In this document: positions 7,368 to 32,589 of the stretch, piece after piece | Position numbering within the stretch: position 1 is the first letter of the stretch | How the letters are laid out: each line of letters opens with the position of its first letter | Origin: Clostridia bacterium | Lineage (GTDB): Bacteria; CBDUZB01; JAGLHV01 | Length of the DNA: 51,916 nt | NCBI GenBank assembly: GCA_030637025.1 | Contig: DAOVVV010000019.1 | Location: forward strand, 1 to 51,916 | Reading direction: 5' to 3' | Made by a program: the position numbers and the translations under genes | Notes under the pieces: model-generated | Database searches by the model: none | The model's input: only the letters and a program-made list of their open reading frames with translations | What the model was told of the DNA's origin: nothing

Positions 7368-8777
7368 CTATTCGTCCATTTTTGCTGAATAAAAGAAAAT
7401 TCTATTTTTCCCTTTCTTTTTAGCTAAAACCATCGCTGAACGTGCTTGCGATATTAACTTCTCTTTTTCCCTTCCTTTCTCCGGATATACTGTACAACCA
7501 ATACTACAGGTAAGTTTTTCGCCTTCAGTCTTCCAGGGATATTCTTCTATTATTTTTTTTATCTTTAATCCTTCTCTTTCTACTTCTCTCCCATCCACGC
7601 CTATTTGAATTATGCCAAATTCATCTTCCCCTAATCGGGCAACGCAATCAATTTTCCGCATATTTTTCTTCAACAAAACACCAATCTTCTTCAAAATTTC
7701 GTCACTGTGATTATACCCAAACTTATCACTTATTTTATTAAAATTATCCATATTTATAATAAAAAGGCTAAAAGGAATTTCTTTCTGTCCGTTTTTTTTC
7801 ATTTCCTGTTCAAAAAATTTTTCAAAATAAATATTATTATAAATCTGAGTTAACGGGTCTAACCGGTTTTTTATTTTTACTTCTTCACAAAAACGGGCAT
7901 TGGTAATAGCAACTGATGCCTGAAGAGCCAGCAATTCTAAAATATCTCTATCTTCCTTAGAAAAAGAATTTACTTTATCACTGTCCACATTTAAAACCCC
8001 GATAAACCGTTCGCCGGAAAACAAAGGTGTAGCAAAAATACATTTTACTTCCCCATACGGCTCAATAAATCTCTTATCGCTTAATATATCTGAAATATAT
8101 AAAGACTTTTTATTTTCTGCTACCCACCCGGCTACTCCTTCACCTATTTTAAATTTAACTGGGGAAGGATTTTTTTCCCTATACCCTGAAAGAACTTTTA
8201 ATTCTAATTCTTCTTCTTTATTCAAAAGCATAATAGAAAAAGAATAATAATTAACCAGTGATAAAACCTCATCGGCAATAAGAATCAAAAGTTTGTCCAA
8301 ATCCAACATTTTATTCATTGCCGAAGAAATAGCCAGGAGCATAGATAATTCCTGTATTTTCCTATCTAAAATACTTTTTTGCTTTATAATAATAGCTTCA
8401 TGAGTTGCTAAATATAATTCCGAAACCTTAAAAATAATACGAAATAAAAGCTTTTCAAGTTCTTTTAAAATTAATTCTCCGGAAATATCATTTTTCTCAA
8501 ATTTATCTTTTAACTTAAACGCTATTGCTTCTCTAAAATCTAAAAAGGCTTCCTGAATAGAAGAAATCTTTATATTTCTATAAAGCGGTATTTCAGAAAT
8601 TTCTTCTACTAAATTCTCCAATTTTTGATAGTTTTCTTTTTCTATTATTTCCATTATTCTATCAATATATTTTAAAAGACCCTGTCCATATTCTTTTTCC
8701 TTTAAAATTTCTGTATATTTTGCAATTAAACCGGCTTTATCTTGTTCTATTATTTCCTGCCACTTCATATTTTTCAT
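7368..8777 (-). CDS. Helical N-terminal (RsbRD_N-like) + GAF + degenerate GGDEF protein
   Basis: GAF segment GEGVAGWVA...IGVLNVDS...F; DPLTQIYN; RKIDCVARLGEDEF; TCSIG. Confidence 0.85.
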   Translation of the reverse strand: MKNMKWQEIIEQDKAGLIAKYTEILKEKEYGQGLLKYIDRIMEIIEKENYQKLENLVEEISEIPLYRNIKISSIQEAFLDFREAIAFKLKDKFEKNDISGELILKELEKLLFRIIFKVSELYLATHEAIIIKQKSILDRKIQELSMLLAISSAMNKMLDLDKLLILIADEVLSLVNYYSFSIMLLNKEEELELKVLSGYREKNPSPVKFKIGEGVAGWVAENKKSLYISDILSDKRFIEPYGEVKCIFATPLFSGERFIGVLNVDSDKVNSFSKEDRDILELLALQASVAITNARFCEEVKIKNRLDPLTQIYNNIYFEKFFEQEMKKNGQKEIPFSLFIINMDNFNKISDKFGYNHSDEILKKIGVLLKKNMRKIDCVARLGEDEFGIIQIGVDGREVEREGLKIKKIIEEYPWKTEGEKLTCSIGCTVYPEKGREKEKLISQARSAMVLAKKKGKNRIFFYSAKMDE

Positions 8778-10778: not shown

Positions 10779-13046
10779 TTATTTTTTATGACTTACTAAA
10801 ACAATATCTAAAACCAGATTCAAAAATCTAAATTGTTTGCCTATATCTGCGAAAGGAACAAATTGTAAAGAAATTTTAGCATCGCTCAAAAATGCGTTTA
10901 AGCCGGTAGAAAACTCCGCCTCTTTTAATTCTTTACCCTTTGGCGGACCTAAAACTATAACAATTTTTAACCCGGCTTTTTTACATAAATCAACAAAAAA
11001 CTTATATTCTACCTTTTCATAAGGTATATATTCTTTTTCAAATACTGCTTTTAATTGAAATTTTAATTTATGCTTTTCAATAACACTTTCGAACTCCTTT
11101 TTTATTTTTTTTAATTCTTCTTCATGCTCCTGAGGATAAAAATAACCTACTTTAACTACTTTAACAGTTTTACCGTTTGTAGTTACTTCCTCTATAGTTG
11201 CTTTTTGTGTAGAATAAATTTCTTCTACTAAAGAAACTTTTTCTATCGGTTTTTCCTCTATTGTTTTTTCCTCTTTTTCCTCAGGCTTTTCCTCAGGCTT
11301 TTTCTCAGGCTTTTTCTCAGGCTTTTTCTCAGGCTTTTTCTCAGGCTTTTCCTCAGGCTTTTCCTCAGGCTTTTTCTCAGGCTTTTCCTCAGGCTTTTCC
11401 TCAGGCTTTTCCTCGTATTTTTGTTCCGGTTCTCTTCTTTTATCCTTAAAACTAAACACTTCTCTCTCTAAAAATTCTTCCGCTCTCTTTTTTTCTTTTT
11501 CTTCGATTGATTTTTCCTTTATTTCTGTTTTTTGCTTTCCTTCTTCTGGACTCTCCTTTTCAGAAGGAAGAAGTTCTTCCAACAAAGTTTTTATCGTTTC
11601 CAAATTTACTTCCTGTTTAGTAAGCTGAACATAAGCCTCTATTCTTTTTAAAAAACCTTCTAATTCGCGAATATTAGACTTTAATCTTCCGGCAATATAA
11701 AGAAGAATATCGTCGTCCAGTTTCATGTTTTGAGCTTCTTCTTTCTTTTTTAAAATAGCTACCCGTGTCTCCAAATTAGGCGACTTAATATCCGCAGTTA
11801 ATCCCCATTCAAACCTTGATTTCAACCGCTCTTCTACATCTACTAATTTTTTGGGTGGTTTATCACTGGTAATAACTATTTGCTTTTGTTCATCATATAA
11901 AATATTAAAAGTGTGAAAAAATTCTTCCTGTGTAGATTCTGCTTCTGCTAAAAACTGAATATCATCTACCAATAAAATATCAAATTTTCTGCAATGACTT
12001 CGAAAATTCTTTACTGTTCCCTGCCGAATAGCATCGATCACATCTTCTATAAATTTTTCTGCAGTAATATACAACACTTTTAAATTTTTATTTTCCCCCC
12101 GGGCAAAATGCCCTATAGCATGTAAAAGGTGCGTTTTTCCCAAACCTACTCCACCATAAATAAATAACGGATTATAAATTTTTCCGGGGTTTTCTGCTAC
12201 AGCTAAAGCAGCCGCATGAGTAAATCGACTATTAGGGCCAACGACAAAATTATTGAAGGTATACCTCTGATTTAATTTTACTTCTCCAAAAAGTTTTTCG
12301 CTCTCTTCTTTTTCTTTTTCACTATTTTGATTTACTTCAACATCTAATAAATTTTTTTCTCTTAAAAGATCCTCTATTTCCTCACTTCTTTGAGGTGTCC
12401 CGGTTTTTTGTTTGACTTTTTTAGTTTGTTCTAATAAAAAGTCCTCGTCTATTTCTTCTAGTTCCTTTTGCTCCTTCACTTTTTCTTTTACTTTTTCTTT
12501 TACTTTTTCTTTCACTTCTTCTTTTATTTCTTCTTTTATTTCTTCTTTTACTTCCTCTTTTACTTCCTCTTTTACTTCCTCTTTTACTTCCTCTTTTATT
12601 TCTTCTTTTATTTCTTCTTTTGCTTCCTCTTTTACTTCCCCTTTTACTTCCTCTTTTATCTCTTCTTTTGCTTTCTCTTTTACCCCTTCTTTTTTGATTG
12701 TCTTTTTTTCATAATTTACTATATTTTCTAAAATATATTCCAACGATGGGGTAGTTTCTGTTTCAGCAGAATTTTCTACACCTTCTTTATTTTCTTTTTC
12801 CTTAGACTTCATAGGACAAATTTTTTGTAAAGTGTTTTCTATTCTCCCCTTTTCTTCCTTATTTACATTATAAACATAGAAAACCCAATTAAACAATTTA
12901 CTTATTGGAACAAAGGATTTACCACAATCTTTACCAACTTTCTTTATTAAATCGAAAAGATCCTCTTCATTTCCATCTATTCTTATCTTATATCTGCGGG
13001 CATCTTTTTCACATGGAGCATAAATAAACTCCCATTTTTTAATCAT
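10779..13046 (-). CDS. DnaA-like AAA+ ATPase lacking domain IV, with repeat linkers and unrecognised N- and C-terminal domains
   Basis: YTFNNFVVG, NPLFIYGGVGLGKTHL, DDIQFL, QEEFFHTFN, RLKSRFEWG, NIRELEG; no RQIAMYL/GGRDHTTV helix-turn-helix. Confidence 0.85.
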   Translation of the reverse strand: MIKKWEFIYAPCEKDARRYKIRIDGNEEDLFDLIKKVGKDCGKSFVPISKLFNWVFYVYNVNKEEKGRIENTLQKICPMKSKEKENKEGVENSAETETTPSLEYILENIVNYEKKTIKKEGVKEKAKEEIKEEVKGEVKEEAKEEIKEEIKEEVKEEVKEEVKEEVKEEIKEEIKEEVKEKVKEKVKEKVKEQKELEEIDEDFLLEQTKKVKQKTGTPQRSEEIEDLLREKNLLDVEVNQNSEKEKEESEKLFGEVKLNQRYTFNNFVVGPNSRFTHAAALAVAENPGKIYNPLFIYGGVGLGKTHLLHAIGHFARGENKNLKVLYITAEKFIEDVIDAIRQGTVKNFRSHCRKFDILLVDDIQFLAEAESTQEEFFHTFNILYDEQKQIVITSDKPPKKLVDVEERLKSRFEWGLTADIKSPNLETRVAILKKKEEAQNMKLDDDILLYIAGRLKSNIRELEGFLKRIEAYVQLTKQEVNLETIKTLLEELLPSEKESPEEGKQKTEIKEKSIEEKEKKRAEEFLEREVFSFKDKRREPEQKYEEKPEEKPEEKPEKKPEEKPEEKPEKKPEKKPEKKPEKKPEEKPEEKEEKTIEEKPIEKVSLVEEIYSTQKATIEEVTTNGKTVKVVKVGYFYPQEHEEELKKIKKEFESVIEKHKLKFQLKAVFEKEYIPYEKVEYKFFVDLCKKAGLKIVIVLGPPKGKELKEAEFSTGLNAFLSDAKISLQFVPFADIGKQFRFLNLVLDIVLVSHKK
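11275..11414. repeat. 12-bp tandem repeat TTTT(C/T)CTCAGGC x11, encoding E(E/K)KP
   Basis: TCAGGC recurs every 12 nt from 11281 to 11401. Confidence 0.95.
12471..12692. repeat. Degenerate 12-bp tandem repeat, about 18 copies, encoding KE(E/K)(V/I/A)
   Basis: TTTTACTTCCTC-like units; protein reads KEEVKEEVKEEI... Confidence 0.9.
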
Positions 13047-13486: not shown

Positions 13487-14563
13487 TTAATTTTCCCCTT
13501 TAGAAATCCCTCTCATTTTTAACATTACATTATCCGGATTAGTAGCATACTCCAGAGCATTCTCTAAAGATATCTTTTTTCCCATATATAACTGATAAAT
13601 CGCCTGATCAAAAGTTTTCATCCCATAAAATTCTCCCTGCTCCATTACTTTGTATAAATCTTTATTTTGAGCATCAAGAATAAGCTTTTTTATTAAAGAT
13701 GTCCCTATTAATATTTCAGTCGCAGGAACTACACTTTCACCATCTATCCCGGGAATCAACCTTTGCGCCACAATGCCACGCAACACATTAGCTAATTGTA
13801 TTCTAGCTTCTGTGGTATTTGCAGAAGGATAAAGACTAATTATTCGGTCGAGGGTCTGTACTGCATCCAGAGTATGAATGGTAGAAAAAACTAAATGCCC
13901 TGTCTCAGCAGCAAGGATACCTTGTCGGATGGTTTCAAAATCACGCATTTCTCCAAGAACGATGACATCCGGATCCTGCCTCAAAATATATCTTAAGGCA
14001 CTAGAAAAAGAATTGGTATCTTCCCCCACTTCTCTCTGACTAATCGTGGCTTTTTCATCCTGATGATAAAACTCAATAGGATCTTCAACCGTAATTATAT
14101 TACATGCTCTATTTTTATTAATATAATCTATCATTGTATTCATCGTTGTAGTTTTCCCTGCCCCTGTTACCCCTGTTATTAAAATTAGCCCCCTTTGTTC
14201 CTGGCATAATTTTATTAATGTCTCCATAGGTAAATTTAAGTCCTCAAACTTTTTCATTTCTAAAGGAATAACCCTTAAAGTAAGAGCGATAGACCCTTTT
14301 TGACGATAAACATTTACCCGAAAACGGGAAACCCCGGAAATAGTATGTGAAAAATCTAATTCTTTTTCCCGTTCAAAGATTTGCCTGTGCAGCGGATTCA
14401 TCAATTTATAAGCAATTTCTTCTATATGTTTAGGTGTAAATCCTTCAAAAGCAGTGGCAATTAATTTCCCATTAATTCTAACTAATGGTGAAACTCCGGC
14501 TTTAAAATGAATATCCGAAATACCTTTTTTAATCATTAATTGTAAGATTTCATTAATATCCAT
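13487..14563 (-). CDS. pilT: PilT/PilU-family type IV pilus retraction ATPase
   Basis: SDIHF, RFRVNVY, GVTGAGKTTT, TVEDPIEF, LRQDPDVI..GEMRD, AETGHLVFSTIHT. Confidence 0.9.
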   Translation of the reverse strand: MDINEILQLMIKKGISDIHFKAGVSPLVRINGKLIATAFEGFTPKHIEEIAYKLMNPLHRQIFEREKELDFSHTISGVSRFRVNVYRQKGSIALTLRVIPLEMKKFEDLNLPMETLIKLCQEQRGLILITGVTGAGKTTTMNTMIDYINKNRACNIITVEDPIEFYHQDEKATISQREVGEDTNSFSSALRYILRQDPDVIVLGEMRDFETIRQGILAAETGHLVFSTIHTLDAVQTLDRIISLYPSANTTEARIQLANVLRGIVAQRLIPGIDGESVVPATEILIGTSLIKKLILDAQNKDLYKVMEQGEFYGMKTFDQAIYQLYMGKKISLENALEYATNPDNVMLKMRGISKGEN

Positions 14564-24617: not shown

Positions 24618-25367
24618 CTATATGAAAAAAATATATTTATTCATATCAGTTTTTATAAATATAACTCCTTTTAAAGCAAAGACATACAAAATTTCAGATA
24701 CATCTGATTCTGAAAAACCGGTTTTTTTTACTATTTCATCTTTTTTGGTTTTCCCATCTATTAAAGAAATTACTTCTTTCTCTTTGTCAAAAAGAAGTCC
24801 TCTTTGAGATTTCAGCTCTTCTTTCATTGTAAAAATTAAAGATTTTTCAGCAACAATATTTTTTTTTAATATTTCCGCCTTTTTATGCCACATAATTCCT
24901 CTACTAACTAAAACATTAATATCCGCTGAAAACTGTATTTTCTCTGTTTTCTTCAAAAAACTATCATCTAAATATTCTTTTTTAAACGCGTAAACTCCCT
25001 TTCCCCACGTATATACATCGTAAACCTCTTCTAAGAGCTGACGTTTTAATACTTCTACAAATTCATTCTGTGAAAAAATTTTTTGTTGCATCAAAATTTC
25101 TTCCATCGATTTATTCGTTTTACTTTGAATTTCTTTTATTTCTTTTATTTTCTCCTCTGAAATTTTTTTAAATCCTAAAATTATTCTTTCCAGTGGTATT
25201 TTTCTTGAAGAAGAAACCCAGCATAAATCTCCTTCTCTAAAATAAAAACTTTTTTCTACTTTATTTTCTAAATTAGTGATAACTAAAAAACCTGTTTCTT
25301 TGTTTTCATAAAAAGTTTTTAAAATTTTACTCAAATCAACCGGATTTAATTTTCCCTTAATATCCAC
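24618..25367 (-). CDS. DUF4388 (PatA_N-like) domain protein with possible C-terminal wHTH
   Basis: IKGKL..VDL..IL......TG.L.I, F.F.EG, W.KG.Y.F pattern; C-terminal LIDGKT...I. Confidence 0.75.
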   Translation of the reverse strand: MDIKGKLNPVDLSKILKTFYENKETGFLVITNLENKVEKSFYFREGDLCWVSSSRKIPLERIILGFKKISEEKIKEIKEIQSKTNKSMEEILMQQKIFSQNEFVEVLKRQLLEEVYDVYTWGKGVYAFKKEYLDDSFLKKTEKIQFSADINVLVSRGIMWHKKAEILKKNIVAEKSLIFTMKEELKSQRGLLFDKEKEVISLIDGKTKKDEIVKKTGFSESDVSEILYVFALKGVIFIKTDMNKYIFFI

Positions 25368-25465
25368 TCTTTGTTTTTCTCTCTTTTCTATTGAAAAATA
25401 CCCGCATCATATAAACATGTTTTTAAAAACTATTATCTCATAAAAATATTTACAAATACTATTTT

Positions 25466-26710
25466 CTACAACTTCATTTCCTGCAATTTATTAATTAGTT
25501 TAAACGCTTCCCGCAAGTTTTTTTCATCTAACAATTTTTTTACTTCATTTAACATATCCACCGCTTGTTGATTTTGTTTCTTTTCTGCTCTAGGAATTAA
25601 AAAATCTACTGTTTCTCTAATAACCCCGATTATTTCCTGCAGGTCTTTTGATTTTTTAATCTTTTCTTTAAAAATTTTTACAGCTTTTGAATGGTCTTCT
25701 TTTAGCCTGGTTTTTTCAGCATATAAATCCGTTTCCGCAAAAACTAAAATATCTTTAAGTAATTCCTTTGCCTTTGATACTGTTATTTCTCCGCCTTTTA
25801 ATGTTAGCTGAGAAATTGCAATTAACCTGTTTAAAACTCCTTCTAATTCTCTTACACTATTAGAAATATTTTGAGCCAGGAAAAAAATAACTTCATCAGA
25901 AAGTTTGATTTTGTTTTCATTTAAACTAAGTTTCTTTTTTAAAATAGCTACTCTGGTTTCCAAATCCGGGGGCTGAATATCTGTTATTATTCCCCCTGCT
26001 AACCTTGTTCTTAATCGTTCTTCAATATTTTTAAACTCTTCCGGGGGACAATCACTGGTAATTACAATCTGTTTATTCGCTTGTGATAAAGCATTGAAAG
26101 TATAAAAAAATTCTTCTTGCGCTGCTTCTTTTCCAATTAAAAACTGAATATCATCAATTAAAAAAACATCATTATTTCTGTACATATCCTGTAATTCGTC
26201 TACCGTATTGTTTTTTATTGCGTTAACTATATCTTTAACAAAACGTTCTGCATTAATATAAAATACTTTTGTTAATGGACTATTCTCAGCTAAATAATTG
26301 CCTATCGCATTTACTAAATGAGTTTTACCTAATCCCGTATGACTGTAAATAAGTAACGGATTATATTTACTCCCGGGAAATTTAGCCACTGCCACCGCTA
26401 CTGCATAGGTAAAACTATTTCCGCTACCTATTACGAAATTTTCAAACATAAATTTTTTCATTAAAGAAAGTCTTTTTTCTTTTAAGCAGGGTCTTTCACC
26501 TAAATCATATTTCTCCTCGCTTTTACCTTCAACAGGAAAAGACCTCCTTTCATATTGATAAAAAAGAACTTTCTCAATATCTTTTTTTCTACTAACAAAA
26601 GGCAAAATACAATAATCCGTTACTCTCCGTAAACCGTCAACAACTTCATCACTCACAGGATCCAACATACTTACAGCAAGGACATTATTAGATTTAGCAA
26701 TGGGAACCAT
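25466..26710 (-). CDS. DnaA-like AAA+ ATPase with N-terminal T2SSE_N/MshEN segment and no domain IV (3' part of a frameshifted gene starting at 26969)
   Basis: VPI....L.VSMLDP...VVD.L (T2SSE_N); FENFVIG, NPLLIYSHTGLGKTHL, IDDIQFL, RLRTRL, VRELEG; helical C-terminus. Confidence 0.85.
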   Translation of the reverse strand: MVPIAKSNNVLAVSMLDPVSDEVVDGLRRVTDYCILPFVSRKKDIEKVLFYQYERRSFPVEGKSEEKYDLGERPCLKEKRLSLMKKFMFENFVIGSGNSFTYAVAVAVAKFPGSKYNPLLIYSHTGLGKTHLVNAIGNYLAENSPLTKVFYINAERFVKDIVNAIKNNTVDELQDMYRNNDVFLIDDIQFLIGKEAAQEEFFYTFNALSQANKQIVITSDCPPEEFKNIEERLRTRLAGGIITDIQPPDLETRVAILKKKLSLNENKIKLSDEVIFFLAQNISNSVRELEGVLNRLIAISQLTLKGGEITVSKAKELLKDILVFAETDLYAEKTRLKEDHSKAVKIFKEKIKKSKDLQEIIGVIRETVDFLIPRAEKKQNQQAVDMLNEVKKLLDEKNLREAFKLINKLQEMKL

Positions 26711-26795
26711 ACAAAATTTTTTTGCTATATAATACGGTATCTGTTTTATAATGCCCTTTCCTATTTTATAATTTGCTAAATCGAAATAAACATAT

Positions 26796-26969
26796 TTATA
26801 TTTTTTTTTTCAAAAAATCTATCAAATCATCTTCTGAAAGACAATCATTTTTTATTAAATAGCCAACACTCGTTTCTCCTGCTCCAGCAATTGCCGCCTT
26901 TGCTTTTTGAAAGCAATCATTAGTTATTATCTTTTCCTGTTGAAGAATAACATCTAATTTCCTTACCAT
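26796..26969 (-). pseudogene. 57-aa MshEN-like 5' fragment, joined to 25466-26710 if one A is removed from an A10 run
   Basis: Translated by hand: MVRKLDVILQQEKIITNDCFQKAKAAIAGAGETSVGYLIKNDCLSEDDLIDFLKKKI*; with A9 it continues YKYVYFDLANYKIGKGIIKQIPYYIAKKFC-MVPI. Confidence 0.85.
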
Positions 26970-27059
26970 AAATTACCTTGCCTCAAAACCTTATCTTTTA
27001 TACAACTTCCATATTTAAAAAATTAACCCGCATCTGAAAATTTTAAAAGACACCTAAAC

Positions 27060-27755
27060 TTATTTTGACTGTTTGGCTATTTCCTCAACTACCTTGTTTA
27101 GAGAAAAAATCAAAGACCCCAGTCTAGCCATAGGTGTTGATAAAGAAACCAGAAATAATCTACTGTTTATTTTACAAAAAGAAACAAATCCTTTTTCATC
27201 ATTTACAAACATTTGAACAATTGTGGGCCTTTTTATTTTTTTATAATCTCTATAAAAATTAAAAAAAAGTTCGGGCACAGATAAAACAGTATCGTCTTTC
27301 AATTTACCACTTAATATCCGGAAAATAATTTCCCCCTCAAAATCAACAATTATCGCTCCCAATATTTGATTATCATCCGATACTAATTGCTTTAAAATTC
27401 TTTCCATTTTTTCTCTTATCGGCAAAACTTTCTCTTTTTCTTTAACCCTTTTTTCATCAATCCTTTTTATCCCTTCCATAAAAAGTTTCTGAATACTCGT
27501 TTTTATTGTTTCCTGACTTGACTGTTCGTTTATTTTAAATTCAAATTCTCCTTTCTCCCATAATAACATTTCAAAAATAACTTCCTGCCCAATTAAATTT
27601 TTTAAGGTTGCATGAACGACTTTCCCGGATTTAAAATATATTCTCCCTGTTTGATTATTATTTATTATTTCCAGGCACCCTGCTTTCCCCGCCATTTCTA
27701 AAATTTGAATTGTATCTGTTAAATTAACATCTTCCAGCGATCCGCGCAAACTCAT
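27060..27755 (-). CDS. DUF4388 + Roadblock/LC7 fusion protein
   Basis: MSLRGSLEDVNLTDTIQ...GRIYF..G.VVHA...WEKGEFEF; C-terminal GAIIVDFEGEII...ARLG. Confidence 0.8.
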   Translation of the reverse strand: MSLRGSLEDVNLTDTIQILEMAGKAGCLEIINNNQTGRIYFKSGKVVHATLKNLIGQEVIFEMLLWEKGEFEFKINEQSSQETIKTSIQKLFMEGIKRIDEKRVKEKEKVLPIREKMERILKQLVSDDNQILGAIIVDFEGEIIFRILSGKLKDDTVLSVPELFFNFYRDYKKIKRPTIVQMFVNDEKGFVSFCKINSRLFLVSLSTPMARLGSLIFSLNKVVEEIAKQSK

Positions 27756-27797
27756 TTTCTCCTCATCTCCTTTCCTAAACAGTTCAGTTATCTATTA

Positions 27798-28382
27798 TTA
27801 TTCTATTTCGAATTTTTCAATAACCAATTTACAAATTGCTTTAATTGTGGCAAAAACCCCTTTTCCTGTAGTAGCAATAGACTCAAAAGAAGGTTTTTTA
27901 TGTATATTTATCACTTCTTCCAAATGATTAAGTGTATTTATATCGGGTAAATCCCGTTTATTATATTGTATGGCACAGGGTAAAGTGTCAAAATCCAATT
28001 TATATTCTTTTAATCTATCCAACAGTTCCTTATAGCTATTTATGTTCTCCTTTAACCGCTGTTTCTGTGAATCAACAATAAAAGCAACTCCGTCTGCACC
28101 TTTTAAAATTATTTTTCGGCTCGCTTCATAATATTCCTGTCCGGGAACGGTATAAAGATGAAATCGGGTAGTAAACCCTTTTATTTTCCCTAAATCCAAA
28201 GGAAGAAAATCAAAAAATAAAGTGCGTTCCTGATCGGTCTTTAATGAAACCATTTTCCCTTTATAGGAAGGTGCTATCGATTGGTAAATATATTCCAGAT
28301 TAGTAGTCTTTCCCCCAAAGCCAGGACCGTAATACACAATTTTGAAATTAATTTCCCGTAACGCATAATTAAAGGACGCCAT
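27798..28382 (-). CDS. mglA: MglA small Ras-like GTPase
   Basis: REINFKIVYYGPGFGGKTTNL, RTLFFDFLPL, TVPGQ, NKRDLP. Confidence 0.95.
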   Translation of the reverse strand: MASFNYALREINFKIVYYGPGFGGKTTNLEYIYQSIAPSYKGKMVSLKTDQERTLFFDFLPLDLGKIKGFTTRFHLYTVPGQEYYEASRKIILKGADGVAFIVDSQKQRLKENINSYKELLDRLKEYKLDFDTLPCAIQYNKRDLPDINTLNHLEEVINIHKKPSFESIATTGKGVFATIKAICKLVIEKFEIE

Positions 28383-28915
28383 TATTCTTCCTTTTTTTTC
28401 TGACCATCAGGAGTAAAATTAGAATCCGAATCAGAAAAAATAGTATCTATTAAATTAGTAGCATATTCCTTGAAATCCGATAACTCTATTTTCACTCTTT
28501 CTTCTTCTTTTTTCCCTTCTTTAATTAAAGAATTTGTTACCTTCCGGGATACTGATTTTGCATAAAATCTAACCTTTCCTACACTTCCAAGATTTTCAAA
28601 CACTACCACCATCATCGCAATAGAACCCAACAAAGAAATATGCACATGCCGTTTTTCTCCCTGTTGAAGAAGAATACTGAATTCCTGTTCTCCCAGAAGA
28701 AAGGCAACTTCTTTTGTCGCAGCAAAAGACCCTGCCACTAATGCCGCTAAAGCAGTAGTGTTAATAAAAGAAACATCCCCTCTATTGGTTATTAATTGCC
28801 CGTCTTTGGTAATAAGAATTATACATATCGCTTTAGTTTGAACTATAAAATCATCTAAAAATTTATTAATTTGTTCTACCTGAGATGAAAAAGTAATCAT
28901 TTTATGATTCTCCAT
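28382..28915 (-). CDS. mglB: MglB roadblock GTPase-activating protein
   Basis: LITKDGQLI, LAALVAGSFAAT..VA.LLGEQEF.IL.QQG; translationally coupled to mglA. Confidence 0.9.
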   Translation of the reverse strand: MENHKMITFSSQVEQINKFLDDFIVQTKAICIILITKDGQLITNRGDVSFINTTALAALVAGSFAATKEVAFLLGEQEFSILLQQGEKRHVHISLLGSIAMMVVVFENLGSVGKVRFYAKSVSRKVTNSLIKEGKKEEERVKIELSDFKEYATNLIDTIFSDSDSNFTPDGQKKKEE

Positions 28916-28959
28916 TGCTTGATTTTTCTCCTTTTATATAATAAAATGAACCGCTCCGT

Positions 28960-29784
28960 TTAATTCTTAATCTGTAATATTATTTTTTTTAAAACATTCT
29001 CTGCTAAATTTACTCCCGGAGAGAGTTCATTTAAAAGACAGGACTGCAAAAGCACTGCATCACATAAAATATTTATCCAAAAAGGGAAAACAATTTTATC
29101 TTTTTTATCTAAAAATTCAAAAATTTTTTCTTTTACTTTTTCAGAAAAAATTTCCTGCCCCCCCCCGGACAATTCAAGATTTTGATTAATAAATTCTTTC
29201 ATCTCCTCAAAACTAAAAGGCTCCATGTTGTATTGCTTTGTTATCTTTTTAAACTTTTCGTTTTTTTCTATCCATTTATTAATTTCCGGTAACCCTAATA
29301 AAACAAAACTAACTATCCTTCCTCCATTTTCATCTTTTAATTCCGTTAAACGAAACAGGCTAAGAAGTGTTTTTTCTCCGGCAATATTATCACTATTATC
29401 AATTATAAAAAGTGTTCGTTTCTTTTCTGTATTATATTTCTCCTCTATAAAATCGGTAATACTTTTTATTTTTGATCCTGAACTATTAACCTGCCTTACT
29501 ATTCCTTTAGAAAGTGCCTCAAAATCAGTCTGTTCACCGGTAACAATCAGCAAAGCAGCATTATAATCATCTTCCCTTAGTAACTCTCTTAAAAGTTTTA
29601 TTCCTAAAGTGCTTTTTCCTGAACCCTTCTTTCCCGTAATTGTTAGGAAAGGAACCTTAAATTGTTTTATGGTTTCTAAGATTTCTTTTTCTATTTTATA
29701 TTTTCGTTCACTTTCATAACAAAGATTTACCTCTAAACCGGTTTCAAAAGGCAATTCTTTGAATCCAAAAAAATCTTTATACAT
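28960..29784 (-). CDS. ExeA/GspA/MshM-like AAA ATPase
   Basis: N-terminal MY..FFGF.E.PF, Walker A GKKGSGKST, Walker B LFIIDN, LLGLPE. Confidence 0.8.
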   Translation of the reverse strand: MYKDFFGFKELPFETGLEVNLCYESERKYKIEKEILETIKQFKVPFLTITGKKGSGKSTLGIKLLRELLREDDYNAALLIVTGEQTDFEALSKGIVRQVNSSGSKIKSITDFIEEKYNTEKKRTLFIIDNSDNIAGEKTLLSLFRLTELKDENGGRIVSFVLLGLPEINKWIEKNEKFKKITKQYNMEPFSFEEMKEFINQNLELSGGGQEIFSEKVKEKIFEFLDKKDKIVFPFWINILCDAVLLQSCLLNELSPGVNLAENVLKKIILQIKN

Positions 29785-29935: not shown

Positions 29936-29964
29936 AATATAATATATAAAACAAAAAAAGTCAA
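29936..29964 (-). promoter_or_regulatory. Putative sigma70 promoter of the mgl operon
   Basis: Minus strand TTGACT-N17-TATATT. Confidence 0.6.
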
Positions 29965-31269: not shown

Positions 31270-32589
31270 TTACTGTAATTTTAAAACGCAAAACTCCCCG
31301 CACATAGTACATGGTTTTTCTTTTTTATTTCTTGTTTTAAGTAAAGAATTTTCTACCCTAACTTTTTTCTTGAATCTTTTCGGGTTGATACACAATTTTT
31401 TTTGGGCATCCCAATCCAGTGCCCTGCGCGCTTTGGCCATCTTAATATCCCATTCAAGACTATTTTTTACACCCTTTACTATATCAGCTGCATGAGCAGC
31501 AATGCGTGAAGCAATTACCCCCTCTTCCACATCCTTTACCGAAGGTAAAGATAAGTGTTCTGCAGGGGTAACATAACATAAAAAATCTGCTCCGTAAGAA
31601 GCCGCCATTGCTCCTCCGATTGCTGAAGTAATATGATCATACCCGGGAGCTATATCAGTAACTAAAGGACCTAAAACATAGAAAGGAGTTTCCTGACATA
31701 AACTTTTTTCTAACATTATACTAGTTTCTATCTGATTTAAGGGAACATGTCCAGGCCCTTCAATTATTACCTGAACATTTTTTCTCCTCGCTCTTTTGGC
31801 TAATTCACCTAAAATAGAAAGTTCTTCCAGTTGAGCAAAATCTAAAGAATCTGCCAAACAACCCGGACGCAAACCATCTCCTAAACTTAAGGTAACATCG
31901 TAAGTTTGTGCAATTTCCAAAATTTTATCGAACTTCTCGTAAAGAGGATTTTCGCGTTTATTAAAAAGAATCCAATTAGCCAAAAAAGCCCCCCCCCTAC
32001 TCACTATACCCATTATCCTTTTATTTTTCTTCAAAACATCTAAAACATTCCGGGTTACCCCACAATGTAAAGTCATAAAATCAACACCTTCTTTTGCCTG
32101 TGCTTCAATAACATTAAACATATCTCCTGCCGTCATATTTTTAATATCTTTTCCTTTTTCCATGGTTTTTCGTGCTACCTGATAAATAGGAACCGTTCCT
32201 AAAGGCAAGGGAGATTCTTTTAAAATCATTCTTCTAATTTCTTTTAAATTTTTTCCTGTAGACAGGTCCATTAATACATCTGCACCTACTCTGACAGCTG
32301 CTCCCAACTTCTTCTTTTCTTCGATTAAACTTCCATAATCAAAAGACGTCCCGATATTGGCATTGACTTTAGTTCTTAAGCCTTTACCTATACCTACCGG
32401 TTTAAATTTTCTGTTTTTATTTTTTCCTAATTTCAACAAAGATGTTTTTCTTAATTTATTTTGAAGAATTACTATTTTCCCCTCTTGTACACCCTTTCGA
32501 ATAAATTCCGGTGACAAACTTTCATGGTCCGCAACTATTTCCATTTCCGGCGTAATTTTTTTCTCTCCAGCTGCCTTCAACTGTATCAT
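31270..32589 (-). CDS. thiC: Phosphomethylpyrimidine synthase ThiC (family includes BzaF)
   Basis: [52 protein letters not shown]; likely start MIQLKA. Confidence 0.88.

Follow-up and report, generated by a model that had tools for sequence, protein, structure and literature searches.

To our knowledge, relatives of DnaA that lack a DNA-binding domain have been described essentially as inhibitors of initiation of the Hda type, and in Hda a short N-terminal clamp-binding peptide lies directly before the AAA+ domain. A second described system concerns the N-terminal domain of pilus ATPases: according to yeast two-hybrid work on Synechocystis phototaxis, PixE uses its PATAN domain to bind residues 1-366 of PilB1, the N-terminal half of that protein, and also the PilC N-domain, and the same source reports that DUF4388+GspE_N fusions exist and that mglA and mglB genes are often found near PATAN genes (bioRxiv 10.1101/2021.06.11.447907). 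Here, we analysed a 51,916-nucleotide stretch of DNA from a Clostridia bacterium (GenBank assembly GCA_030637025.1, contig DAOVVV010000019.1; hereafter the window), which carries a minus-strand gene (25466..26969, ATG at 26969, stop codon at 25466..25468) with a bearing on both systems. A sequence-only reading of this DNA had proposed that the gene product combines a DnaA AAA+ core with a pilus-ATPase N-terminus and no DNA-binding domain, and this architecture is now confirmed. Our preferred, still tentative, interpretation is that the protein derives from DnaA but serves as an ATP switch or scaffold and not as an initiator, and that it is docked to an MglA/PATAN polarity module. As sequenced, the gene consists of two open reading frames (ORFs) split by a +1 frame break; with one A removed it encodes a 500-amino acid (aa) product. 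Residue numbers below refer to this repaired product, to the 447-aa stop-to-stop frame of the sequenced gene (25466..26809) or to the intact orthologue P0002, as indicated.

The domain order is a PilB/MshE-type MshEN head (~140 aa), a disordered linker, the AAA+ core of DnaA domain III and a four-helix bundle of ~90 aa (all coordinates on the minus strand). The head begins with a four-helix MshEN_N subdomain (codons 1-56, 26802..26969), which is colinear with the orthologue N-termini, has its helices at residues 5-57 in the P0002 model and contains two degenerate 24-residue cyclic di-GMP (c-di-GMP) motifs. The alpha/beta MshEN_C subdomain follows (repaired residues ~57-140, 26549..26800), and Pfam PF05157 was matched at E=3.4e-8 over residues 5-81 of the 447-aa frame and at 2.1e-13 on intact P0002. 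The family profile matched residues 1-142 of the PilB chain 3jc8 (E=1.5e-19) and the N-domain of V. cholerae MshE (5htl, E=1.6e-9), a single-sequence search reached PilB N-terminal domains at 2e-4, and Foldseek aligned the P0002 N-domain with 5htl over 138 columns (E=2.1e-7). Both parts of the MshEN fold, four-helix MshEN_N and alpha/beta MshEN_C, were thus recovered by Pfam, profile and fold comparison, and the earlier claim that ~135 aa of MshEN/T2SSE_N-like sequence stand in place of DnaA domains I/II, which hinged on T2SSE_N similarity at the N-terminus, was borne out. Pfam detected neither the T2SSE ATPase domain (PF00437) in the protein nor DnaA_N (PF11638) in the 447-aa frame or P0002. 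The linker between head and core (26465..26548) is weakly conserved (27% identity to P0002) and its counterpart at residues 142-158 of the P0002 model has a predicted local distance difference test score (pLDDT) below 50. Overall, the AlphaFold2 model of P0002 (mean pLDDT 86.9) shows three folded modules and two disordered linkers, with the N-domain at 1-140, disorder at 142-158, the AAA+ module at ~160-400, disorder at 406-416 and helices at 416-491.

The AAA+ core and lid (DnaA domain III, 25745..26464) form the best conserved region, with 88% identity to P0002 against 48-68% in the other folded parts, and matched Pfam Bac_DnaA at 1.5e-62. The motifs that had been read as intact were all located: Walker A (GLGKT of TGLGKT, 26321..26335), Walker B (IDDIQ, 26144..26158), the arginine-finger box (RLRTR, 26003..26017) and sensor II (VRELEG, 25838..25855). 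Across 185 canonical DnaA cores, 68 columns show an identity of 95% or more and count here as near-invariant; the window core kept 60 of them, and its eight changes are mostly conservative. Among solved structures, B. subtilis DnaA (8btg) was matched at 3.2e-74, and in Foldseek the modelled core superposed on domain III of the B. subtilis protein (8bv3) with a template modelling (TM) score of 0.95 and a root-mean-square deviation (rmsd) of 1.6 A over 239 columns, at 51% identity in the structural alignment. On the 447-aa frame, the DnaA equivalog model TIGR00362 scored 329.2 bits, below its cut-off of 343.9, and the match stopped at model position 375 of 437. From the state of these motifs we infer that the protein has ATPase activity.

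Such a core could also belong to an Hda-like negative regulator, which would join or cap DnaA-ATP oligomers through its arginine-finger face and promote hydrolysis or block filament growth, with the head and tail tuning the timing. We consider this unlikely, although it has several points in its favour: like Hda, the protein is a DnaA-related AAA+ ATPase without domain IV, its RLRTR box and sensor motifs are intact, and 51% identity to B. subtilis DnaA domain III makes a matching interface with DnaA plausible. However, the core resembles DnaA much more than Hda, for which the TIGR03420 model gave 87.3 bits against a cut-off of 194.8 (the remaining Hda models scored lower) and Hda chains in the PDB matched at ~1e-5. 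Moreover, the N-terminus is a 140-aa MshEN domain in which no Q-led clamp motif was seen by eye, without a formal motif scan, and the neighbouring genes are polarity genes, not replication genes.

The core was also compared with the nine B. subtilis DnaA residues that are named as contacts to single-stranded DNA (ssDNA) and the DnaA-trio in a cryo-electron microscopy study of the origin unwinding complex (PMC10721633), using a gap-free alignment to B. subtilis DnaA. Six of these are identical in the window protein (E183, I193, N196, K222, E223 and E228), one is conservatively replaced (I190V) and two are changed (N187K and R202Q). With six identical contacts and one conservative replacement among the residues named there, ATP-dependent assembly of the DnaA type and contact with the backbone of ssDNA are plausible, and specificity for the DnaA-trio is doubtful.

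The C-terminal tail (25469..25744) takes the place of DnaA domain IV and is specific to the window clade. It consists of a short disordered stretch followed by a predicted bundle of four helices (about 25478..25708; ~92 residues for the tail), which a model of the 98-aa window tail folds as an up-down four-helix bundle with helix pLDDT values of 82-92. No Bac_DnaA_C (PF08299) was found by Pfam on the 447-aa frame or P0002, and the tail carries no RQIAMYL/GGRDHTTV-type signature. A domain IV hidden Markov model (HMM), trained on the C-terminal 100 residues of 60 canonical DnaAs and able to recover 186 of 270 stored proteins, reached E=2.7 on the window frame and did not match the orthologues. 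Conversely, a tail HMM matched solely the window protein (P0001) and its orthologues P0002-P0005 among 269 stored proteins. In searches for tail look-alikes, the ESM Atlas yielded no usable match and Pfam returned weak, chance-level matches only. Foldseek searches with the tail model had a best E of 1.4 (cytochrome b562-like proteins and designed bundles), none of the 304 matches reached E<=0.001, and no DnaA chain was present among the best 50 of these 304. The expectation of ~90 helical residues without a domain IV signature therefore holds, and domain IV, the reader of DnaA boxes, is absent as judged by Pfam, by the HMM and by fold comparison.

A divergent true initiator, whose tail would be an unrecognisable domain IV and which would act at some origin, is accordingly extremely improbable. 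Two results could be quoted for it: in hhalign, the alignment of the family with canonical DnaA continues into the tail (query 403-456, template 347-406), and Foldseek alignments to full-length DnaA chains extend over 343 columns. Yet the former holds few, scattered matching positions and the latter come at an rmsd of 12.8-18.2 A; the tail alone found no domain IV fold, and neither the domain IV HMM, Bac_DnaA_C nor the TIGR00362 cut-off places the protein among initiators.

We next turn to the c-di-GMP pocket of the head. According to Wang et al. 2016 (PMC5013675), MshEN domains carry two 24-residue motifs with a five-residue joiner and four key glycines, which can be searched with a relaxed pattern; contacts to c-di-GMP are made by Gly-Asp backbone amides and conserved leucines. 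We scored the 22 constrained positions of the motif RLGxx(L/V/I)(L/V/I)xxG(L/V/I)(L/V/I)xxxxLxxxLxxQ in tandem. The window protein retains 12 of the 22 (6+6) and none of the four glycines, and neither the strict nor the relaxed pattern was matched; as had been noted from the sequence, KLD stands where RLG is expected and the terminal Q is missing, position 24 being I. The intact orthologues P0002-P0005 score 14-15/22, also without a pattern match. In contrast, nine other MshEN-DnaA clusters are near-canonical (18-21/22 in tandem), and in P0121, whose longer spacer makes its score not comparable, both motifs pass the relaxed pattern. Forms of 398-411 aa (P0125, P0132, P0136 and P0137) score 14-17/22 and match no pattern. 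As judged from the motifs, degeneracy is a feature of the window clade and not of the whole MshEN-DnaA family.

It follows that the head is a very unlikely c-di-GMP receptor. The idea that it still binds c-di-GMP, and so makes a DnaA-type ATPase responsive to it, draws on the MshEN fold, on the near-canonical motifs of the sister fusions and on the presence in the window of a GAF-GGDEF diguanylate cyclase gene (7368..8777, minus strand), which lies 17 kb from the gene and indicates that the organism has c-di-GMP signalling although this pocket is degenerate. Against it stand the loss of all four glycines with the failure of both patterns, and the reported precedent of XpsE, in which comparable substitutions abolished c-di-GMP binding (PMC5013675). 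The suggestion that the protein probably does not bind c-di-GMP is thus upheld, and the direct tests made here speak against both the receptor and the divergent initiator.

The architecture is not a one-off but that of a recurring family. A profile of the clade, searched against 1.84 billion cluster representatives, retrieved 26,475 proteins at E<=0.001, and an MshEN-like N-domain precedes the DnaA-type core in 18 of the best 150 clusters at 50% identity. Pfam verified both domains in all eight fusion clusters that were scanned (8/8). Members such as P0121, P0125, P0133, P0140 and P0211 range from 398 to 1990 aa, the giants of 1876 and 1990 aa each holding two DnaA-type cores. In the ESM Atlas, two clusters, one with 72 members (704 aa) and one with 56 (788 aa), show Bac_DnaA and MshEN on every member, Candidatus Hydrogenedentota being the commonest phylum. 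One relative is named in databases as 'ATP-binding protein [bacterium]', and a literature search, judged in part by title or abstract and not extending to the lists of MshEN architectures in the supplement of PMC5013675, found no description of MshEN-DnaA fusions. In having an MshEN domain ahead of a DnaA-type AAA+ core and lacking domain IV, the window protein agrees with this unnamed family, of which it forms a distinct branch that has lost the pocket and carries a four-helix tail of its own.

In the same best-150 list, DnaA-type cores that lack domain IV are also found in other contexts (P0148, P0144 and P0123-type proteins). In P0148 (806 aa) the core is fused to a T2SSE/PilT-like ATPase, and in P0144 (1361 aa) Pfam finds it with a long TPR array; ~15 further proteins of similar length group with P0144 in the tree. 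Tandem pairs also occur, with two DnaA-type modules in 18 stored proteins. In a tree of 147 rows, the window clade branched among canonical DnaA cores (Shimodaira-Hasegawa-like approximate likelihood ratio test, SH-aLRT, 95). In a tree of 103 rows from which long branches had been removed, it grouped with 15 other MshEN-fused cores and 16 other cores without domain IV (SH-aLRT 97), and the scanned TPR-fused P0144 was among these latter companions.

Another DnaA-type AAA+ paralogue, 755 aa long, is encoded in the window itself (10779..13046, minus strand); it also lacks domain IV, and its nearest relatives in both trees are P0234 and P0260. Its core (residues 258-498) sits between long Glu/Lys-rich and Glu-Lys-Pro repeat linkers, and the protein further has a small N-terminal domain and a C-terminal domain of ~150 aa without assignment. 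A PilT-type ATPase gene (13487..14563), whose product carries the T2SSE domain, is found two genes away. With TIGR00362 it scored 349.2 bits, above the 343.9 cut-off, so that it could be misannotated as DnaA.

The fusion gene lies in a tight run of six minus-strand genes (24618..29784), in the order AAA_22, mglB, mglA, PATAN, the fusion gene and PATAN. Gaps within the run are at most 98 bases, and a promoter/terminator scan found no terminator-like site in them. At the head of the cluster is an AAA_22 P-loop ATPase gene (28960..29784; Pfam AAA_22 2.7e-11, TIGR03015 1.9e-24 over the full length but below its cut-off). It is followed by mglB (28382..28915), a Roadblock/LC7 gene recognised by Pfam Robl_LC7 (1e-8) and by phmmer against the MglB chain 6izw (4.6e-20), and by mglA (27798..28382), which encodes a small Ras-like polarity GTPase matching 'Mutual gliding-motility protein MglA' (6hjh) at 2e-68 over residues 2-190. 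The stop codon of mglB and the start codon of mglA share one base, and we take MglB to be the GTPase-activating partner of MglA. The upstream PATAN (DUF4388) gene (27060..27755, 231 aa; Pfam DUF4388 2e-25) encodes a C-terminal part of ~110 aa without assignment, and the downstream one (24618..25367, 249 aa) matches DUF4388 at 6.2e-11. The PATAN protein encoded upstream was looked at further. A Roadblock-like fold in the second half of this upstream protein had been considered and was rejected, hhalign against MglB giving a probability of 0.5%.

The best promoter-like site on the minus strand (29964..29936) is just upstream of the AAA_22 gene; over the whole window, the promoter/terminator scan was not above shuffled sequences (31 vs 24.7 +/- 5.3), and Rfam gave no match. 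The minus strand carries all 36 Pfam-supported ORFs of the window, and every plus-strand ORF of at least 100 aa overlaps them, an extreme coding-strand bias over 52 kb. Genes for TonB/ExbBD, OmpA and AsmA occur elsewhere in the window, as in a diderm-type genome.

Linkage of the fusion gene to the upstream PATAN gene extends to its orthologues. Orthologues of the upstream PATAN protein are found on contigs of 33136, 3532 and 62652 bases, the same sizes as the contigs of P0002, P0004 and P0005. With a contig of only 3532 bases, the PATAN gene and the orthologue P0004 must adjoin there. PATAN genes on both sides of the gene, together with the published binding of a PATAN domain to a PilB N-domain, support the idea that the N-terminal head is a protein-docking module, as had been suggested from the sequence; by analogy with the two-hybrid data reported for PixE, PATAN proteins would be its candidate partners. 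In complex prediction, the two PATAN orthologues scored 0.00 with the P0002 MshEN head (residues 1-160) in both runs, which were made without controls; the score weighs neither for nor against docking.

Taken together, these findings are the basis for our interpretation of the protein as a non-initiator ATP switch or scaffold of the polarity module. It retains domain III, the engine of DnaA, which would provide ATP binding, hydrolysis and self-assembly. Domains I/II have been exchanged for a PilB/MshE-type head without a c-di-GMP pocket, and domain IV, the DnaA-box reader, for a small four-helix bundle. Driven by ATP, the protein may form DnaA-style head-to-tail oligomers, alone or mixed with the DnaA of the cell and possibly on ssDNA. 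The PilB-like head would dock onto the products of the two flanking PATAN genes and, through them, link to the MglA/MglB polarity switch encoded just upstream. Cell polarity, in place of c-di-GMP or DnaA boxes, would then position or gate the assembly. The sequence itself shows which domains the protein has, the state of its motifs and its gene neighbourhood; ATP hydrolysis, oligomerisation, contact with ssDNA or DnaA, and PATAN docking are the steps we propose on that basis.

A number of observations weigh against this interpretation. At the level of the core, the two changed DnaA contacts, N187K and R202Q, read bases in the complex described in PMC10721633, and recognition of the DnaA-trio type may therefore be lost. 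The other cores without domain IV (n=76, TPR or T2SSE fusions included) keep a median of 58 of the 68 DnaA-invariant columns; with a similar share in TPR- and T2SSE-fused cores, high DnaA-likeness alone does not mean that a core touches DnaA or DNA. The AAA+ core also falls in different places in the 147-row and 103-row trees. At the level of the locus, one of the three orthologue clusters of the downstream PATAN protein is on a contig sized as that of a target orthologue (32405 bases, P0003), and on long contigs matching sizes show co-location, not adjacency. A genome scan with P0002, which used six patterns, one of them a general DnaA motif, returned at least 80 loci; those among the matches listed were all canonical dnaA-type and none of them was an orthologous locus, with best-segment identities of at most 54% and no match beginning before query residue 64. 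Finally, the frameshift in the window copy means that the gene may be dead in this strain.

This last point depends on the nature of the break. The gene bounds given earlier (25466..26969) proved exact, and the repaired 500-aa product is colinear with orthologues of matching length (494-495 aa). The upstream ORF (26796..26969) encodes 57 aa, and the longest ATG-started ORF within the 447-aa frame has 414 aa (25466..26710). Both ORFs overlap inside a run of ten A (26801..26810), the longest homopolymer of this 33%-GC window, and with nine A the sequence reads like the orthologues (...FLKKKYKYVYFDL...). Intact orthologues were found in four clusters in a search of 5.8 billion clustered proteins: P0002-P0004 (494 aa) are 74% identical to the window protein by BLASTP and P0005 (495 aa) is 62% identical. 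Their alignment is free of gaps over the break, with DFLKKK before and YKYVYFDL after it, and both halves are colinear end to end with no further stops. A single four-letter reading step over the break was considered as another way to join the frames; the case is not clean, since a further in-frame TTGA lies 12 bases upstream and AAAA is present 21 times.

Runs of ten A are classic places for sequencing error and polymerase slippage, and slippage on an A run can partly rescue a broken frame. Three origins of the extra A come into question: a mistake in the assembly, a mutation that is phase-variable or very recent, and a break that slippage partly bypasses. If the frameshift is real and fixed, the gene would be a fresh pseudogene in this strain, which we regard as unlikely. 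In support of such a loss, the frame is broken as sequenced and, of the 12 long homopolymer runs listed in the window, only the A10 run falls on a broken frame; the other 11 lie within intact ORFs or between genes, which argues that the assembly is not generally error-prone at homopolymers. The search of 5.8 billion clustered proteins yielded no intact protein more than 90% identical to the product, and the exact 414-aa ORF is recorded on one contig (51916), as compared to eight contigs for the exact protein of each flanking PATAN gene (longest 66294). On the other side, the lesion is single and lies in the longest homopolymer, a type of site prone to such errors, and both halves align fully with the orthologues. 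Over the 56 codons upstream of the break, identity to P0002 is 48% for the window protein and 43% for intact P0005, so that this part is no more diverged than in an intact protein and shows no extra decay. Other assemblies of the same organism may read the A run differently. The window also contains two C9 runs on the plus strand (G9 on the coding strand; 29158..29166 and 31989..31997), inside the intact AAA_22 ATPase and ThiC genes; such runs are unusual at 33% GC and could be mutable tracts.

Beyond the single gene, MshEN-DnaA(AAA+) fusions might constitute a new class of regulators that wire pilus, polarity and c-di-GMP signals into DnaA-type oligomerisation and hence into the start of replication. 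In that scheme, members with intact motifs would sense c-di-GMP and the window clade would have replaced this input by docking to PATAN/MglA and, in addition, acquired a four-helix output domain of its own; we hold this broader proposal to be improbable as it stands. If the fusions touch DnaA or origin ssDNA, they would provide a direct link from surface, polarity or second-messenger signalling to replication control. If they touch neither, the DnaA filament engine would have been reused as a general ATP-gated scaffold. Either outcome would be new for a family labelled just 'ATP-binding protein' in databases, and this uncharacterised family is thus of relevance to the replication, c-di-GMP and polarity fields. 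There is also a practical consequence: such paralogues score at or near the cut-off of the DnaA model, which the 755-aa protein passes, and they risk being misannotated as initiators.

Set against the systems described so far, the protein falls outside DnaA, Hda/HdaA and the MshEN proteins defined by their c-di-GMP motifs. It resembles DnaA in its AAA+ core, with all named motifs, 60/68 columns and a TM score of 0.95, but it has no domains I, II or IV, scores below the TIGR00362 cut-off and differs at two of the DnaA-trio contacts named for B. subtilis. Like Hda/HdaA, it is a DnaA-family AAA+ protein that lacks a DNA-binding domain and keeps the arginine-finger box, whereas its match to Hda is remote and it has a large MshEN head and an extra four-helix tail. 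Both MshEN (T2SSE_N) subdomains of PilB, MshE and GspE are present, yet this head is joined to a DnaA-type core instead of a T2SSE ATPase and its motifs are degenerate. With the other MshEN-DnaA fusions it shares the domain order, although these are without the four-helix tail of the window clade. The closest parallel for its surroundings is the PixE/PixG-PilB1 system of cyanobacterial phototaxis, in which, as reported, a PATAN protein is likewise associated with a PilB-type N-domain and mglA and mglB lie near PATAN genes; there, the partner is a real pilus extension ATPase, while here the head sits on a DnaA-type ATPase and would pair with the PATAN proteins encoded next to it.

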